In this document: in pieces, positions 509 through 9,272 of the stretch
How the letters are laid out: each line of letters opens with the position of its first letter
Numbering within the stretch: position 1 is the first letter of the stretch
DNA from: a virus
Reading direction: 5' to 3' (one strand)
Length of the DNA: 12,136 bases
UHGV virus genome: UHGV-1828797
Made by a program: the position numbers and the translations under genes
The notes under the pieces: generated by a model
The model's database searches: none
Seen by the model: only the letters and a program-made list of their open reading frames with translations
Told to the model about the DNA's origin: nothing

Positions 509-724
509 ATGTATCGAATGGAAAAAATCACGACGGGTATTGCATACGGCGCATCGGGTGGGGGGACCGGATACTGGTTGCTTCAGCTCCTCGATAAAGT
601 CTCCCCATCACAATGGGCGGCCATTGGTGTGCTCGGTAGCCTCATGTTTGGTTTGCTGACGTGGTTAACGAGTCTGTACTTCCAAATCAAAGCGGATCGC
701 CGCAAAGCTGCGCGGGGTGAATGA
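509..724 (+). CDS. S: Class II holin (phage 21 S-type pinholin) with dual-start motif
   Basis: 71 aa with two hydrophobic segments ([21 protein letters not shown] and [23 protein letters not shown]) and a basic C-terminus ([11 protein letters not shown]), as in S21. Met1 and Met4 (M-Y-R-M) would give 71- and 68-aa products. GAGGTGA Shine-Dalgarno 6 nt upstream. The stop overlaps the endolysin start (ATGA). Confidence 0.85.
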
Positions 725-1260
725 TGTCGAACAAAGCAAAGCTCAGTGCAGCAGTGCTGGCGCTAATCGCGTCAGGGGCATCTGCTCCACTCATTTTCGA
801 CCAATTCATCAGCGAGAAAGAAGGCAATGCGCTGGTGGCCGTTGTTGATCCGGGTGGGGTCTGGTCTTTATGTCACGGCGTGACCGTTATCGATGGCAGG
901 CGTGTTGTTAAAGGCATGACGGCCACTGAGGAACAATGCCGGAAGGTTAACGCTATTGAACGCGATAAGGCATTAGCCTGGGTTGATCGCAATATCAAAG
1001 TGCCTCTGACAGAACCGCAGAAGGCCGGGATCGCATCTTTCTGCCCGTACAACATCGGGCCGGGTAAGTGCTTCCCTTCCACGTTCTACAAGCGCATCAA
1101 TGCCGGTGACCGCCACGGGGCATGCGAGGCGATTCGCTGGTGGATTAAGGACGGTGGACGTGATTGCCGCCTGACAAAAGGCCAGAAGAATGGCTGTTAT
1201 GGGCAGGTCGAGCGGCGCGATCAGGAAAGTGCGCTGGCGTGCTGGGGGATAGACCAATGA
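721..1260 (+). CDS. R: SAR endolysin (phage 21 R-type lysozyme with N-terminal signal-anchor-release domain)
   Basis: 179 aa. The N-terminus is a Gly/Ala-rich weakly hydrophobic segment ([20 protein letters not shown]) typical of SAR domains, followed by an E...D...T lysozyme catalytic region ([15 protein letters not shown]...HGVT). It sits immediately after the pinholin with an ATGA overlap. Confidence 0.88.
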
Positions 1261-1358
1261 GCCCAAGCAGCATTTGTTTCATTGTGGCGGGAATACTGAC
1301 GTGTCTCTGTATGTCTGGTTGGGGATGGTTTGTCTTTGTTGGAGTAATCCTCCTATGA
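1257..1358 (+). CDS. Candidate 33-aa single-pass hydrophobic peptide nested between endolysin and Rz (hypothetical)
   Basis: ATG at 1257 overlaps the endolysin stop (ATGA, 1257-1260); the stop TGA at 1356-1358 overlaps the Rz start (ATGA, 1355-1358). GGGGGA at 1244-1249 gives a 7-nt Shine-Dalgarno spacing. Product [33 protein letters not shown] is almost entirely hydrophobic. It fills an otherwise unexplained 94-nt spacer inside the lysis cassette. Confidence 0.35.
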
Positions 1359-1819
1359 GTCGAATTGTTGGAGTTACCTGTGCGGTAACTATCGTGGTAA
1401 TCAGCGCTATGGGTTGGGCCATCAACCACTATCGCGACAACGCCATCACCTACAAAGACCAGCGCGATAAAGCCACAAAGAACCTCCGCCTGGCTAATGC
1501 CACCATCAAAGATATGCAGACCCGCCAGCGTGATGTCGCTGCACTGGATGCCAAATACACGAAGGAATTGTCCGATGCGAAAAAGACCATTAACGATTTG
1601 CGTCGTGATGTCGATTCTGGCGCTAAACGGCTGCGCATCGCCGCAACCTGCCCTGGAGTGCCAAAAGCCACCTCCTCCACCGGCGTGGATGATGCAGGAG
1701 CCCCCGAACTTACTCCAGACGCTCGACGGAATTATTTCGATCACCGGGACGGAATCGCAACCGCTGACAAAATGATTCGCGGCATGCAGGACTACATCAA
1801 AGAGCAGTGTCTTAAGTGA
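1355..1819 (+). CDS. Rz: Rz i-spanin (inner-membrane spanin subunit)
   Basis: N-terminal TM helix ([17 protein letters not shown]) followed by the conserved [27 protein letters not shown] motif and a C-terminal QDYIKEQC, closely matching lambda Rz from memory. Start taken at ATG 1355 (protein MSRIVG...), not the upstream in-frame ATG at 1274. Confidence 0.9.
1575..1775 (+). CDS. Rz1: Rz1 o-spanin (outer-membrane lipoprotein), embedded in the +1 frame of Rz
   Basis: Lies entirely inside Rz in another frame. [20 protein letters not shown] has a signal peptide with a lipobox-like LNGC, followed by the proline-rich PPPPPAW motif characteristic of lambda Rz1. Confidence 0.8.
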
Positions 1820-2852: not shown

Positions 2853-3341
2853 ATGGCAGCACCAAAGGGCAACCGATTTTGGGAGGCCCGCAGTAGTCAT
2901 GGGCGAAATCCTAAATTCGAATCGCCTGAGGCGCTGTGGGCTGCTTGTTGTGAATACTTCGAGTGGGCTGATGATAACCCACTATGGGAGGGTAAGGTAT
3001 TTTCATATCAGGGAGAAATAATTAAGGCTAATGTCCCTAAGATGCGAGCCATGACTATTTCAGGATTGTGTACCTTCCTTGATATCACCAGGCAAACGTG
3101 GGGAACCTTCCGGTCAATGGAAGGTTTTTCTGACGTCACATCACGAGCGGAAGACATCATCTACGACCAGAAATTCTCTGGCGCAGCCGCTGACCTTCTC
3201 AACGCTAACATCATCGCCCGTGATTTGGGCCTCAAAGAGCAGTCGCAAGTTGAAGACGTGACACCTGATAAGGGAGATCGCGATAAGCGGCGCTCTCGTA
3301 TCAAGGAGCTATTCAACCGTGGAACTGGACGCGATTCTTGA
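2853..3341 (+). CDS. terS: Terminase small subunit (P22 gp3-like)
   Basis: 162 aa starting [22 protein letters not shown], recognised as the P22-type small terminase family. It sits immediately upstream of, and overlaps, the large terminase gene. It contains a pac-like sequence (next feature). Confidence 0.85.
3120..3141 (+). other. Candidate pac (packaging initiation) site inside terS
   Basis: GAAGGTTTTTCTGACGTCACAT matches about 16 of 22 positions of the P22 pac site (GAAGATTTATCTGAAGTCGTTA, from memory) and lies at the equivalent position in the gene, about nt 268 of terS. Confidence 0.4.
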
Positions 3342-4815
3342 TAACCTGAGCGACGAAGAGCAAATCGAATTGCTCGAGCTACTCGAAGAAGAAGAGAACT
3401 ACCGGAACACACACCTGCTATATGAATTTACGCCATACAGCAAACAGCGTGAGTTCATCGACGCCGGGCATGACTATCCAGAGCGCTGTTTTATGGCTGG
3501 TAACCAGCTTGGTAAGTCATTTACTGGTGCTGCTGAAGTCGCGTTTCACCTTACCGGGCGTTATCCGGGCACAAAAGGCTATCCTGCTGATGGTAAATAT
3601 GGCGGGGAGTGGAAAGGTAAGCGTTTCTATGAGCCTGTTGTCTTCTGGATTGGCGGCGAGACAAACGAGACGGTAACCAAAACGACTCAACGCATCCTGT
3701 GCGGTCGTATTGAAGAGAATGATGAACCGGGCTACGGTTCAATACCGAAAGATGACATCATTAGCTGGAAGAAGTCTCCTTTCTTTCCGAACCTTGTTGA
3801 TCACCTTCTGGTTAAGCATCACACGGCTGATGGCGTTGAAGATGGCATTTCAATCTGCTACTTCAAACCATACTCGCAAGGCCGTGCTCGCTGGCAGGGT
3901 GACACAATCCACGGCGTGTGGTTTGACGAAGAGCCACCATACAGCATTTATGGCGAAGGTCTTACCCGTACCAACAAATACGGGCAATTCTCAATTCTGA
4001 CGTTTACCCCGCTGATGGGGATGTCTGACGTTGTTACCAAGTTCCTGAAGAATCCCAGCAAGTCGCAGAAAGTGGTCAACATGACCATCTATGACGCTGA
4101 GCACTATACCGACGAGCAGAAAGAGCAAATCATCGCATCCTATCCTGAGCATGAGAGAGAGGCGCGTGCTCGCGGTATTCCTACGATGGGTAGCGGTCGA
4201 ATCTTCCAGATACCGGAAGAGACGATTAAGTGTCAGCCGTTCGAGTGTCCTGATCACTTCTACGTCATCAATGCAATGGACTTCGGATGGGATCACCCAC
4301 AGGCACACATCCAGCTTTGGTGGGATAAAGACGAGGACGTGATTTATCTTTCTCGCGTCTGGAAGGCCAAACAGAAGAAGGCGACAGAGGCATGGAGTGC
4401 TGTTAAAGCATGGAGCAAAAACACCCCTACGGCTTGGCCTCATGACGGGCATCAGCACGAAAAGGGAGGCGGCGCTCAGCTCAAGGAACAATACGCCGAC
4501 GCTGGGTTCGATATGTTGCCAGATCATGCAACATGGCCTGATGGAGGTAATGCGGTCGAACCCGGGATAGCAGAGATACGCGACATGATGCTCGACGGTC
4601 GTTTCAAGGTATTTAACACCTGCGAGCCATTCTTTGAAGAGTTTCGCCTGTATCACCGCGATGAGAACGGGAAGATCGTCAAGCTAAATGACGACATCCT
4701 TTCTGCTGTTCGCTATGGCTACATGATGAGGCGTTTTGCAATACAGATGCGAGACATCAAAGATCCTAAAGAGATTGATTACTCAAGCTACAACATACCT
4801 TGCGGAGTTGGATGA
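3319..4815 (+). CDS. terL: Terminase large subunit (ATPase/nuclease)
   Basis: 498 aa with a GTG start overlapping the terS 3' end. Walker A-like motif AGNQLGKSF near the N-terminus; size and position match P22 gp2-type TerL. The stop TGA (4813-4815) overlaps the portal start. Confidence 0.9.
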
Positions 4816-7016
4816 TGGCTGATGATAGAAAGATGACTGACTGGCATCGCAAGGTGCTGTGCAACTTTGATAATGCCTGGTCAGCAACGCAGGATATGCG
4901 TGAGCAGATTATTGAGGCTCAACGTTTCGTTCGGGTATCCGGCGCACAGTGGGAAGGCAGCACAAACGCTGGTTACTCATTTGATGAAGGCAGGTTTGAG
5001 CATTACCCGCGCTTTGAACTGAATAAGATTGCCCGTGAATGTGATCGCATCATTGGCGAGTATCGACAGAATCGCATCAGCGTTAAATTCAGGCCGAAGG
5101 ACGATAAGGCATCGGAAGCGTTAGCCGAAAAGATGAATGGTAAATTCCGCGCTGACTATCAGGAAACATCCGGTGGCGAAGCGTGTGATAACGCATTTGA
5201 TGATGCTGTAACGGGCGGATTCGGTTGTTTCCGCATGTGTGCCGATTACGAAGATGAAATGGATCCGAGTAACGAGCAGCGACGCATCAGCCTTCTTCCT
5301 GTTTACGACCCAGCGACATGCGTCTTCTTCGATCAGGACAGCAAGCAATATGACCGCTCTGATGCTATGTGGGCTATGGAAATGTTCTCCATGACGCCTA
5401 AAGCGTTCGAGGCTGAATACCCTGATTCCATCGCGGCAAGCCTTTCTAGTGATGACACTGGCACTCAATATGACTGGTCAACGCCAGATGCCATCTATGT
5501 TGGTCGCTACTACGAAGTTCGCATAGAGAAGGTGAAGCTCACGGCATGGCGTAACCCTGTTAGCGGAGAAACGGCAATCTATGATGAAGAGCAAATCAAA
5601 GATATTGTCGACGAGCTGACCGATGGCGCATTCGAACTGATTGGCGAGCGGACAGTGAAGAAACGCCGCGTTTATTGCGGCCTTCTGTCTGGCGCTGAAT
5701 GGCTGGAAGAACCGAAGCGTATTCCGGGCGAACATATTCCTCTCATCCCGGTATATGGGCGTCGTTCATTTGTTGATAATCAGGAGCGAATAGAAGGCCA
5801 CGCAGCAAAAGCGATGGATGCACAGCGTCTTGAGAACCTGATGGTTTCCATGATTGCAGATAACGCTACTCAGGCTGGCGGTGATGGCATTCCTATCGTG
5901 GATGTTGATTTCATTCCAGGTACATTAATGAATCACTGGGCAGAGAGGAATAAGAAAAGACCTGCAGTTCTTCCTATGACCAGCAAGAAGGACAAAAACG
6001 GAACAGTCATTTCAGAAGCTCAGGTTGCTGGCTGGACACCACCGACACAAATGCCTCCTGCTCTTGCCGGGCTATTGCAGTACACCGGAACTGCTATTCA
6101 GCAAATTACAGGCGCGTCGCAGCTTGAGAACATGCCGAGCAACGTCGCTACTGATACCGTTGATAGCATCTTTAACCGGATGGATACGCAGTCCTATATC
6201 TACATGGACAACATGGCTAAATCCATGCGTCGCGCTGGCGTTGTGTGGCTTTCTATGGCGCGTGAAGTCTATGGCAGCGATACGCCGATGCGTATCGTTA
6301 ATGAGGACGGCAGCGATGACGTGGCGCTGATGACTGGTGAAGTGGTTGACCGTCAGACAGGGCAGGTTATCGCGCTTAACGACCTTTCGCAGGGTAACTA
6401 TGAAGTGACTGTCGATGTCGGTCAGTCGTTCGCTACTCGCCGTGATGCAACGGTTAAGTCGTTACTTTCCATGCTGGCACTTATCCCGCCAGGAACGCCG
6501 AAGCATGACCTTGTATCGTCGATGATTCTCGACAATATGGACGGCGAAGGGATGGACGACCTTAAAGAATACAACCGCAATCAGTTGCTTCTGTCTGGCG
6601 TTATTAAGCCGAGAACACCAGAAGAACAGCAGATGGTTGAGCAGGCGAAACAACAACAGGCCAGTCAGCCAGATCCGGCTATGGTTGCAGCGCAAGGTCA
6701 GCTTCTTGCTGGTCAGGCTGAATTGCAGAAAGCGCAGAACGAACAGGCAGCCATTCAGGTTAAAGCATTCCAGGCACAGACTGATGCTCAGGTTGCTGCG
6801 GCAAATGTTGTGAAAATCCTCGCATCTGCCGATAGCCAGCAGAAATCTGATATCCGCGAGGCTCTGAAACTGCTCGGACAGTTCCAGCAACAGCAAGGAG
6901 ATAATGCCCGTGCTGATGCAGAGCTTGTCCTGAAAAGTCAGGCACAGGGCCATGCGCAGCGCATGGACATCAGCAGCATCCTGCAAAAATCAACTCAGCA
7001 ACAACCACAGCAGTAA
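4812..7016 (+). CDS. Portal protein (P22 gp1-like)
   Basis: Conserved portal motifs recalled from P22 gp1 (RRRVYCGLLSG, EHIPLIPVYG) and a long C-terminal Gln/Ala-rich helical extension (PEEQQMVEQAKQQQASQPDPAMVAAQGQLLAGQAELQKAQ...) like the P22 portal barrel. Start taken at ATG 4812 (ATGA overlap with terL); ATG 4815 is equally possible. The ORF track starts at TTG 4800. Confidence 0.9.
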   Translation: MMADDRKMTDWHRKVLCNFDNAWSATQDMREQIIEAQRFVRVSGAQWEGSTNAGYSFDEGRFEHYPRFELNKIARECDRIIGEYRQNRISVKFRPKDDKASEALAEKMNGKFRADYQETSGGEACDNAFDDAVTGGFGCFRMCADYEDEMDPSNEQRRISLLPVYDPATCVFFDQDSKQYDRSDAMWAMEMFSMTPKAFEAEYPDSIAASLSSDDTGTQYDWSTPDAIYVGRYYEVRIEKVKLTAWRNPVSGETAIYDEEQIKDIVDELTDGAFELIGERTVKKRRVYCGLLSGAEWLEEPKRIPGEHIPLIPVYGRRSFVDNQERIEGHAAKAMDAQRLENLMVSMIADNATQAGGDGIPIVDVDFIPGTLMNHWAERNKKRPAVLPMTSKKDKNGTVISEAQVAGWTPPTQMPPALAGLLQYTGTAIQQITGASQLENMPSNVATDTVDSIFNRMDTQSYIYMDNMAKSMRRAGVVWLSMAREVYGSDTPMRIVNEDGSDDVALMTGEVVDRQTGQVIALNDLSQGNYEVTVDVGQSFATRRDATVKSLLSMLALIPPGTPKHDLVSSMILDNMDGEGMDDLKEYNRNQLLLSGVIKPRTPEEQQMVEQAKQQQASQPDPAMVAAQGQLLAGQAELQKAQNEQAAIQVKAFQAQTDAQVAAANVVKILASADSQQKSDIREALKLLGQFQQQQGDNARADAELVLKSQAQGHAQRMDISSILQKSTQQQPQQ

Positions 7017-7106
7017 TTAACCCATAACGTGCAATGGCTGTCTTTATGAGGCCTGGCACCCTATTGCCTTCCGATGGGCTGAACATCGAGTAAACAGGGG
7101 TAACAA

Positions 7107-8000
7107 ATGGACCAGATGGCAGAAAACACACCAGAAGTTGAAATCGAAACCGACGCGTCAGAGCAGATTCCTGATGATGTCGAACTGGCTGAAGAAGTCG
7201 AAACAGAAGATGGCAGTGAGTCCTCCGGCAATGATGCAGAGGAAGCTACTGAAACTGATGACGACGAATCAGAACAGGAATTCTACTTTGGTGACGAAAA
7301 GCTGGATTCGCCAACCAGCGAAGATGGCGCAGAGCATGGACTGGTAAAACACCTGCGCAAGACGATTAAAGAGAAAGACCGCGAGCTGAAAGAGCTGATG
7401 CGTCAGTCTCAGAAACCCGTCGAGCAGCAGCCGGTAATCACTCAACCACCGCGAATGCCAAAACTGGATGATGAGGACATCGGTTTCGATGAAGAAATCT
7501 ATCAGCAACGCATGGCTAAGTGGGCAGAGGATAACGGCAAGTACCAGCAACAGGAGATGGCTCGCAAGCAGAAGGAGCAGGAGCTTCAGGCTGCCTATCA
7601 AGAGCGATTATCCAAATATCAGCAACGTGTTAAGGCTCTCAAGGTTCCTGGCTATCAGGAAGCAGAACAGGCCGTACTCGAGGAAATCCCCATCGAGACA
7701 CAAAACGCGATCCTGTTTGAGTCAGAGAAGCCGGAAATCGTTGTTCTGGCACTCGGTCGCAACGCTGAACTGCGCAAGCAACTGGCAGAAGCTACCAACC
7801 CCGTAGCAATTGGTCGTCTGCTGGAACGTATCGAATCGAAGGCCAGAATCATGCCAAAAGCAAAAACCACGGCAGCCACAACCCCGACAGTTAAGGGGAG
7901 CAACGGCGCAGTAATCAATAACCTCGACAAACTGAAAGCCAAGGCGCTGGAAACTGGTGACTGGACGCCGTATTTCGCCGCTAAAAAGGCAAAAAAATAA
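7107..8000 (+). CDS. Scaffolding protein (putative)
   Basis: Sits between portal and coat, as P22 gene 8 does. 297 aa with an extremely acidic N-terminal ~70 residues, a central charged helical/coiled-coil-like region, and a basic C-terminus (..DKLKAKALETGDWTPYFAAKKAKK) of the kind that binds coat protein. Call is by position and composition, not strong sequence recognition. Confidence 0.65.
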   Translation: MDQMAENTPEVEIETDASEQIPDDVELAEEVETEDGSESSGNDAEEATETDDDESEQEFYFGDEKLDSPTSEDGAEHGLVKHLRKTIKEKDRELKELMRQSQKPVEQQPVITQPPRMPKLDDEDIGFDEEIYQQRMAKWAEDNGKYQQQEMARKQKEQELQAAYQERLSKYQQRVKALKVPGYQEAEQAVLEEIPIETQNAILFESEKPEIVVLALGRNAELRKQLAEATNPVAIGRLLERIESKARIMPKAKTTAATTPTVKGSNGAVINNLDKLKAKALETGDWTPYFAAKKAKK

Positions 8001-8018: not shown

Positions 8019-9272
8019 ATGGTTAACCAATTAGCAAAAGACCTTGAAATCATGTTCGAAAACTACGTTGAAGGCTTTGAGGCCGCCTGCGTAGTTTCCC
8101 GTAACGCTAAAAAATTCCGTCCCGGTGATACAGCAATGCAGCGAGCAGGTGATGTTCTGTATCGTCCGCAGCATTACCACATGAACATTGAGGAAGGCCT
8201 AGATCTCAGCGGCAAAACGCCAACAGCACTGGTTCAGCGCCTTGTTCCTTCTGTGTTCAAGGAGCCGAAAAACATTCTGTACACTCTGGATGCGCGTGAA
8301 ATGCGTGACCCGGAACATAAAACTGAAGCTGGTCGCGCCGCAGGTATGCGCCTTGCTGCACAGATTGACTCTGACCTGATTTCCATGGTCACGCAGCGTG
8401 CTACTAACGTGATCACAATGGCTGACTCAACCACTGGTTCACAGGGCCGTGATTTGTGGAACTGTGCGGCAGGTATTGATGCCACCATGACGGCGATTGG
8501 TGTACCACAGGGTATCAACCGCCGCTCTTTCTGGAATCCCTTCAACTATAAAGACCTTGCTGGCGAGCTTGGTCACCGTGCTTATGCTCAGGGCGCAACC
8601 CTGACAGCATACGAAAAAGCGCAGATCCCTCCGGTTGCGTCCTTCGATAGCTACAAGACCGATATTTCTGGTCGTGTTCCGAAGGGTACAGCAACTCCCA
8701 TTACGCTGGCAGCAGCACCTGCGCACAAGGTTGAAGCGAAAGATGCTAACGATATGCCAGTGGATAACCGACAGGGGACCATTACGGTATCTGCTGAAGG
8801 TTTGCAGGTTGGCGATGCGTTTACCATCGCAGGGGTGAATTCTGTACACCAGATCACCAAAGATACCACCGGGCAGCCGCAGGTATTCCGCGTTCTGGCA
8901 GTAAGCGGAACGACAGTAACTATCTCCCCGAAAATTCTGCCGCCTGACAACGCGGATGTCGCCAGCCGACCATATGCAAACGTTGATGCTAATGCGGCAA
9001 GTAGCGCAGCAATCACCATTCTCAACAAAAATGCCGCACCGGCTAACCTGTTCTGGGCTGATGGTTCTGTTGAACTGATGTACGGCAAGCTGGCGTTCCC
9101 AACTGGTCAGGGTCCACAGGTAATGACAGCAACCACCGAGCAGGGCGCTACGCTGATCATGTCTTACGCCTTCGACCACATCAAAGGTGTAACCACTGCG
9201 CGTTTCACCACCCTGTACGGTTGCTCTGTACTTGTTCCTGAATATACGGGCATCGTTATTGCCGGGCAGTAA
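8019..9272 (+). CDS. Major capsid (coat) protein
   Basis: 417 aa immediately after the scaffold gene, with GGAG Shine-Dalgarno. Short stretches resemble P22 coat from memory (AKKFRPGDTAMQRAG near the N-terminus, NLFWADGSVELM near the C-terminus). Followed by a strong terminator. Confidence 0.8.
   Translation: MVNQLAKDLEIMFENYVEGFEAACVVSRNAKKFRPGDTAMQRAGDVLYRPQHYHMNIEEGLDLSGKTPTALVQRLVPSVFKEPKNILYTLDAREMRDPEHKTEAGRAAGMRLAAQIDSDLISMVTQRATNVITMADSTTGSQGRDLWNCAAGIDATMTAIGVPQGINRRSFWNPFNYKDLAGELGHRAYAQGATLTAYEKAQIPPVASFDSYKTDISGRVPKGTATPITLAAAPAHKVEAKDANDMPVDNRQGTITVSAEGLQVGDAFTIAGVNSVHQITKDTTGQPQVFRVLAVSGTTVTISPKILPPDNADVASRPYANVDANAASSAAITILNKNAAPANLFWADGSVELMYGKLAFPTGQGPQVMTATTEQGATLIMSYAFDHIKGVTTARFTTLYGCSVLVPEYTGIVIAGQ

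Follow-up and report, generated by a model that had tools for sequence, protein, structure and literature searches.

Genes of the window

The window, by which we mean the whole 12.1-kb stretch of DNA that was analyzed, comes from a P22-like phage or prophage and carries its late region, with all of the genes on the + strand (Table 1). The gene order, from the small terminase through the large terminase, portal, scaffold, coat, gp4, and gp10 to the tail needle, is that annotated in CUS-3 and in P22. From position ~2783 or ~4829 on, the DNA is 94 to 96% identical to Escherichia phages E212, JEP4, CUS-3, Sf101, and their relatives (all Lederbergvirus). Relative to some phages of the CUS-3/E212/Sf101 group, the lysis region of the window (positions 1 to 2782) and the terminase genes are mosaic, and the joints lie at gene boundaries. 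In particular, similarity to E212 and EC.P3 starts at 2783, just 5' of the small terminase gene, whereas similarity to CUS-3, Sf101, and Huey starts only at 4829, at the start of the portal gene, which assigns the terminase genes to another module. In the left 2.8 kb we found no more than patchy similarity, to lambdoid and Stx phages, and none of the best phage-collection matches listed extends upstream of ~369.

Table 1. Genes of the window and segments of the scaffolding protein (coordinates are positions in the window).
Feature	Position	Strand	Remarks
Holin	509-724	+	
Endolysin	721-1260	+	
Rz i-spanin gene	1274-1819	+	
Rz1-type o-spanin	1575-1775	+	phrog_3198; +1 frame inside the Rz gene; lipobox LALNGC
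Small ORFs, no assigned function	between Rz/Rz1 and small terminase	+	
Small terminase (terS)	2853-3341	+	
Large terminase (terL)	3319-4815	+	
Portal	4800-7016	+	PF16510 P22_portal, E = 1.5e-170; upstream neighbor of the scaffold
Scaffolding protein, CUS-3-type P22-like phage	7107-8000	+	297 aa
Scaffold: polyanionic, sequence-variable N-loop core	7107-7271	+	aa 1-55; no secondary structure predicted, pLDDT below 50 (35-40)
Scaffold: conserved end of the N-loop	7272-7340	+	aa 56-78, EQEFYFGDEKLDSPTSE; still acidic; predicted beta-hairpin 59-66
Scaffold: helical body	7341-7841	+	aa 79-245; predicted LVKHLR helix 76-102, column helix 129-177, five-helix base 183-245
Scaffold: flexible C-loop and basic HTH "hook"	7842-7997	+	C-loop aa 246-270, hook aa 271-297; putative coat-binding domain
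Coat	8019-9272	+	PF11651 P22_CoatProtein, E = 1.1e-74; downstream neighbor of the scaffold and partner of its putative hook
gp4, gp10, and tail-needle homologues	3' of coat	+	

Some observations concern genes other than the scaffold. First, an acidic ORF of 121 aa lies 5' of the holin gene (73 to 438, +) and had no PHROG or Pfam match. Second, a 134-aa ORF that lies 3' of the lysis cassette and 5' of the small terminase gene (2176 to 2580, +; phrog_1365) contains an HExxH motif (HECAH) and has a sub-threshold match to a SprT-like Pfam model (E = 0.12); it may encode a small metalloprotease-like protein. Third, the true start of the Rz gene is probably downstream of the one listed, which is a TTG, since the PHROG match covers the product only from residue 28 on. 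Similarly, the mechanically called portal ORF opens at a TTG at 4800, 6 codons ahead of the start annotated in CUS-3 (732 aa). The CUS-3 start corresponds to the ATG at 4818 (MADDRK…), which is probably the real start of the portal gene.

Identity and domain plan of the scaffolding protein

The protein encoded between the portal and coat genes matched PHROG 648 ("head scaffolding protein") with E = 2.3e-119 over residues 6 to 297. Residues 1 to 290 are 100% identical to the scaffolds of phages E212 and EC.P3; a single residue (E30K) separates it from the scaffold of CUS-3, and it is 99% identical to the remaining members of the CUS-3 group. Its 90%-identity cluster has 2,720 member sequences, and the NCBI name of the cluster is "scaffolding protein." Against the scaffolds of CUS-3, E212, and Sf101, which belong to the same PHROG, we found the same protein in the same gene order and no substantial difference.

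The relationship to the P22 scaffold (gp8) is more distant. The single sequence gave a marginal match to gp8 (phmmer, E = 1e-3), and a profile built from 48 family members matched it with E = 5.6e-7 (PDB 8i1v, chain H). The profile alignment runs almost end to end, from profile positions 44 to 296 and from P22 residues 30 to 300. In a Foldseek search of the PDB, the top five matches were the P22 scaffold structures of 2025 (9kyw, 9kyv, 9kyx, and 9kyy), with probabilities of 0.96 to 1.0, modest E-values (6e-3 to 0.2), and target-normalized TM scores of 0.46 to 0.69. In contrast, the Pfam model for the C-terminal part of gp8 (PF09306, Phage-scaffold) did not match the window's protein even at E ≤ 10. 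This model matched just 1 of the 48 family members (E = 2.5e-5), and we think that it is too narrow for the CUS-3 branch, so we do not read its silence as counter-evidence to homology. The other Pfam results for this protein were noise, and the acidic region did not match any Pfam family. Judging from the sequence comparisons and the gene's position, the product is a P22-family scaffolding protein of the CUS-3 branch; an earlier note, made from the DNA sequence alone, had taken it for a putative scaffolding protein.

The gene model is also sound. The scaffold gene differs from that of CUS-3 at 14 nucleotides, and because 12 of the 14 are at codon position 3, the reading frame is correct. The start codon agrees with the annotation of CUS-3 and with the conserved N-terminus of the homologues, in which M1 and A5 are invariant. 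We considered whether the acidic region might overlap another gene, since ORFs are open at 7138 to 7347 (+, 69 aa) and at 7061 to 7231 (-, 56 aa), and we read both as by-products of GAN-rich codons: the substitutions relative to CUS-3 respect the scaffold's frame, and the alternative frames are not consistently open among relatives, although this is a weak test. The noncoding gap between portal and scaffold (7017 to 7106) is unusually long, at 90 nt; it has the same length in CUS-3, as compared to 13 nt in P22. We rejected a regulatory RNA in this gap or at the 5' end of the gene, as folding there was not significant (z = 0.76) and there was no Rfam match. Promoter-like or terminator-like sites of note were not found there either.

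To lay out the domains, we ran AlphaFold2 with the alignment of 48 family members (mean pLDDT of 72.8); low AlphaFold confidence is only a proxy for disorder. Residues 1 to 55 are predicted to be intrinsically disordered: besides the low confidence for this segment, it has a net charge per residue (NCPR) of -0.44, and the charge-hydropathy boundary places it among disordered sequences. The earlier note had suggested disorder prediction as a check, and the outcome suits a flexible tail. In the more conserved end of the N-loop, beta strands are predicted at residues 59 to 61 and 64 to 66, with pLDDT of 56 to 64. Confidence is 53 to 85 over residues 79 to 110 and 84 to 95 over residues 111 to 250, and it exceeds 90 in the five-helix bundle. 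The C-terminal end is predicted to form two helices (271 to 283 and 287 to 296) with a GDW turn between them, behind a linker (258 to 270) with low pLDDT.

This predicted layout of N-loop, base, column, C-loop, and hook matches the plan of P22 gp8, whose N-loop comprises residues 1 to 57 (PMC12005531; bioRxiv 10.1101/2022.12.13.520362). The homology to gp8 (PDB 8i1v, 9kyv-9kyy, and 2GP8) is near full length and agrees with it. Both in an alignment of ten phages and in the profile alignment, NLDKLKAKALETGDWTPYFAAKKAKK at the C-terminal end is aligned with the coat-binding hook of P22, and both hooks have a G-D turn and a K-rich last helix. This C-terminal helix-turn-helix is thus the putative coat-binding hook. 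The earlier note had named the lack of such a predicted element as grounds for doubting a scaffold; instead, the two helices are predicted, and they align with the P22 hook.

A family-wide acidic N-terminus

The earlier note had drawn attention to the first ~70 residues as dominated by Asp, Glu, Ser, and Thr, and this description holds. Among residues 1 to 75 (7107 to 7331) are 12 D, 19 E, 1 K, and no R, which gives a net charge of -30, and D, E, S, or T make up 59% of them; the peptide that had been quoted as an example lies at residues 10 to 58. The first basic residue is K65, residues 1 to 64 contain no K, R, or H, and there is no histidine before residue 77. The location given for the block (7107 to 7330) was strongly polyanionic as claimed, but its natural limit is slightly later, at about residue 78 (7340), directly before the conserved LVKHLR helix. 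With this limit, residues 1 to 78 have a net charge of -31, and the other 219 residues have a net charge of +7, with +8 in residues 246 to 297.

Chance is an unlikely origin for this composition. In the densest 60-residue stretch of the scaffold, 45% of the residues are D or E, as compared to a mean of 13.9% over the window's 15 ORFs and to a maximum of 28% in the next-highest ORF. Given that mean, at least 26 acidic residues among 60 would occur with a binomial probability of 2.8e-8, which becomes about 1e-4 once ~3,700 such stretches are corrected for. The probability of finding no K or R in 64 residues is 5.6e-4. We also considered a tandem repeat or slippage as the source of the block, and rejected it because the DNA that encodes the acidic stretch contains no tandem repeats.

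We then asked how the acidic block varies across the family. In an alignment of 48 relatives that are 35 to 88% identical to the window's scaffold, the segment equivalent to residues 1 to 55 is the least conserved: its mean identity to the window is 33%, versus 45 to 75% for other regions, 41% of its columns are gaps, and its length varies from 46 to 71 aa. However, its fraction of D and E is held at 0.37 ± 0.05, and it contains a mean of just 0.6 K or R. Drift in sequence and length, together with fixed charge and the near-exclusion of basic residues, is the pattern that a disordered polyelectrolyte segment with a function should show. In the end of the N-loop, F59 and L66 are invariant, and E56 and S68 are nearly so, and this part aligns with GFEIVLKDDE of P22.

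More broadly, when 1.84 billion cluster representatives were searched with a profile, 1,859 clusters scored at E ≤ 1e-3. From the best 150 of these we took the 143 proteins that are full length, each from a separate 50%-identity cluster, and surveyed their charge. The first 60 residues of these proteins have a net charge of -23.1 ± 5.9; the charge is -10 or below in 98.6% of them and -20 or below in 77%. For the 124 of the 143 with a locatable helix motif, the N-loop averages 74 residues and a charge of -27.7, and the rest of the protein is at +6.0 ± 3.0. With a charge of -26 in its first 60 residues, the window's scaffold ranks 54th of the 143 proteins drawn from those best 150 clusters. The block is thus not "unusually strong," as the earlier note had it, and "extension" is also a misnomer, as the block is a domain of the whole family and is not peculiar to this protein. 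The corresponding net charges are -12 for P22, -18 for Sf6, and -10 for APSE-1; compared to that of P22, the N-loop in the window is ~20 residues longer (78 versus 57) and carries more than double the charge (-31 versus ~-13). Judging by these sequences, the acidic block is ordinary for P22-like scaffolds, and P22 is the mild case.

The acidic run is always closed by a hydrophobic strand and then G-D-E: EFYFGDE in the window's scaffold, FEIVLKDDE in P22, and, in distant members, VVVTIGDEE. (EFYFGDE is at residues 58 to 64, or 7278 to 7298; the equivalent in P22 is just past the residues, 1 to 40, that are mobile by NMR.) The window's scaffold and P22 gp8 share this arrangement of an acidic N-loop closed by a hydrophobic strand and an acidic motif, as well as a basic C-terminal helix-turn-helix. 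The scaffolds of Sf6 (gp4) and APSE-1 (P23) are ~33% identical to the window's scaffold from residue ~59 on, and they share with it the acidic N-terminus, the WVKDLRK helix, and the helical body. However, their C-terminal end (…FNKLCPGAKIE) is without the tail with the GD-turn helix-turn-helix that is found in the window and in P22. The earlier note had proposed a comparison with the scaffolds of P22, Sf6, and CUS-3-type phages, and in all of these the N-terminus is acidic. That Sf6/APSE-1/ZP9-type scaffolds keep the acidic N-terminus with a different C-terminal end fits a role that is not tied to one hook. Across the 48-member family, the charge of the N-loop is not correlated with that of the C-terminus (rho = 0.09) and is only weakly correlated with the charge elsewhere in the protein (rho = -0.39, with no correction for phylogeny). 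Because N-loop charge does not track C-terminal charge, the idea that the two fold back on each other or are matched in charge gets no comparative support.

Possible roles of the acidic N-loop

The earlier note gave the role of the block as unknown, but this is not so for the P22 homologue. The P22 scaffold is present in procapsids, leaves intact during DNA packaging, and is absent from virions (bioRxiv 10.1101/539965; PMC12005531). Residues 1 to 40 of the P22 scaffold are acidic; they are random coil when the protein is free and keep their mobility inside procapsids of 23 MDa, where the helix-turn-helix is immobile (NMR; bioRxiv 10.1101/539965). The authors of that study proposed two effects of the negative tail, competition for the hook and help with exit; they also purified the scaffold of CUS-3, examined it by CD and NMR, and found that in a pH titration it behaves similarly to that of P22 (bioRxiv 10.1101/539965). 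Deletion of residues 1 to 57 from the P22 scaffold leads to the retention of ~140 scaffold molecules, to shortened packaged DNA, and to reduced or lost gp16 (bioRxiv 10.1101/2022.12.13.520362). Taken together, these sources portray the P22 N-loop as disordered, negative, and needed for exit and complete packaging (bioRxiv 10.1101/539965; bioRxiv 10.1101/2022.12.13.520362; PMC12005531). However, the P22 deletion takes away the conserved strand motif along with the charges, so its effects may not be due to charge alone.

We propose that residues 1 to 78 are an intrinsically disordered, polyanionic N-loop that would act as an electrostatic release or anti-sticking tail on a dipolar assembly chaperone, and we put the probability of this reading at roughly 0.7. 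For the window's protein, the exit function, the folding back on the hook, and the repulsion by DNA are inferred from homology to P22. The basic hook (residues 246 to 297, +8) would bind the inner face of the coat shell, the helical column and base would oligomerize and contact the portal, and the N-loop (-31) would remain mobile in the interior of the procapsid. The acidic tail would keep the free scaffold soluble, and it could fold back on the basic hook or compete for it. As DNA enters and the coat matures, repulsion between tail and DNA, along with competition for the hook with the acidic coat surface, would weaken binding, and the intact scaffold would then leave through the hexon holes and be recycled. 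The N-loop is probably anchored by its EFYFGDE strand, either to the body or to some partner, for example the gp16-type ejection protein. The earlier note had suggested that the block excludes DNA from procapsids; the logic we favor is the opposite, with incoming DNA and maturation driving the scaffold out.

Disordered polyanionic segments attached to basic binding modules are found elsewhere, as in the C-terminal tail of T7 gp2.5, the tip of bacterial SSB, and the acidic tail of HMGB1. Tails of this type are thought to act by electrostatic competition, and they regulate the DNA binding of the same protein. The N-loop of the scaffold has no homology to them, and the scaffold's basic module would bind coat instead of DNA.

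A more specific version of the release tail is that the N-loop is a tuned module. Its charge (about -31, as compared to about -13 in P22) might set the DNA fill or ionic conditions at which the scaffold is released, and EFYFGDE might dock to the base, the portal, or a gp16-type protein and so couple release to the loading of cargo. Both the acidic charge and the closing strand with its GDE motif are conserved over ~140 divergent clusters (from the best 150 of 1,859). We consider this version to be speculative.

Another view is that the tail is mainly an auto-inhibitor or a solubility "bristle," which masks the basic hook against premature or off-pathway coat binding and aggregation, so that exit would be secondary. 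The strong dipole of the protein (-31 versus +8) favors this view, as does the weak negative correlation between the charge of the N-loop and that of the rest of the protein. In the P22 scaffold, D18 is near R303 and D181 by cross-linking and FRET (bioRxiv 10.1101/2022.12.13.520362), and the protein is classed as an "electrostatic hairpin" (bioRxiv 10.1101/539965; bioRxiv 10.1101/2022.12.13.520362). However, P22 fragments without the N-terminal region still assemble procapsids (bioRxiv 10.1101/2022.12.13.520362; PMC12005531), and the phenotype described for the deletion of residues 1 to 57 is failed exit, not failed or aberrant assembly. The lack of correlation with C-terminal charge, and the acidic N-terminus of Sf6-type scaffolds despite their different C-terminal end, also argue against masking of the hook. 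A mainly auto-inhibitory role thus seems unlikely, but auto-inhibition as such does not conflict with the data, and the tail may serve it alongside exit.

Alternatively, the N-loop could be mainly a docking platform, in which the islands AEN.PE, SEQIPD, and EFYFGDE recruit gp16 or the portal or serve translational autoregulation, and the acidity is an incidental spacer. Conserved islands do stand out within the variable region (A5 and F59 are invariant, and E19 and E56 are nearly so), and the N-terminus of the P22 scaffold has been implicated in gp16 incorporation and in translational autoregulation (bioRxiv 10.1101/2022.12.13.520362; PMC12005531). However, AEN.PE and SEQIPD are unrecognizable in P22, Sf6, and distant representatives, where the charge is still recognizable. 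The insignificant folding of the 5' intergenic RNA and its lack of an Rfam match also speak against this view. Docking is plausible for the conserved strand motif, but it leaves the family-wide conservation of charge unexplained: a charge of about -23 per 60 residues, kept over ~140 divergent clusters (from the best 150 of 1,859), argues for selection on charge itself. We therefore think it improbable that docking is the main role.

Last, apart from a high density of negative charge, no result supports the earlier note's idea of nucleic acid mimicry, whether as an Ocr- or ArdA-like decoy for host DNA-binding defense proteins or as a placeholder that occupies DNA-binding sites in the procapsid, and it is very improbable: there were no Pfam or PHROG matches of the Ocr or ArdA kind and no such structures among the Foldseek hits, the region is predicted to be disordered instead of a rigid array of carboxylates, the gene encodes a late assembly factor between portal and coat, the P22 homologue is recycled and not injected (bioRxiv 10.1101/539965), and scaffold function accounts for the conserved, family-wide architecture.

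Overall, the finding is an ordinary one, because the block is the normal, already described N-loop in a protein that is identical to annotated scaffolds. P22-family scaffolds are already known to have an acidic, disordered N-terminus, and the phenotype of its deletion in P22 has been described; the gene, a correctly annotated scaffold, occurs in thousands of sequences from E. coli prophages and phages. The finding carries little weight as a discovery. The survey makes a modest addition: strong charge is the norm for the family, and P22 is the weakly charged exception. Since typical members have about twice the N-terminal charge of P22, CUS-3-type proteins would be good material for testing whether release of the scaffold is driven by charge.
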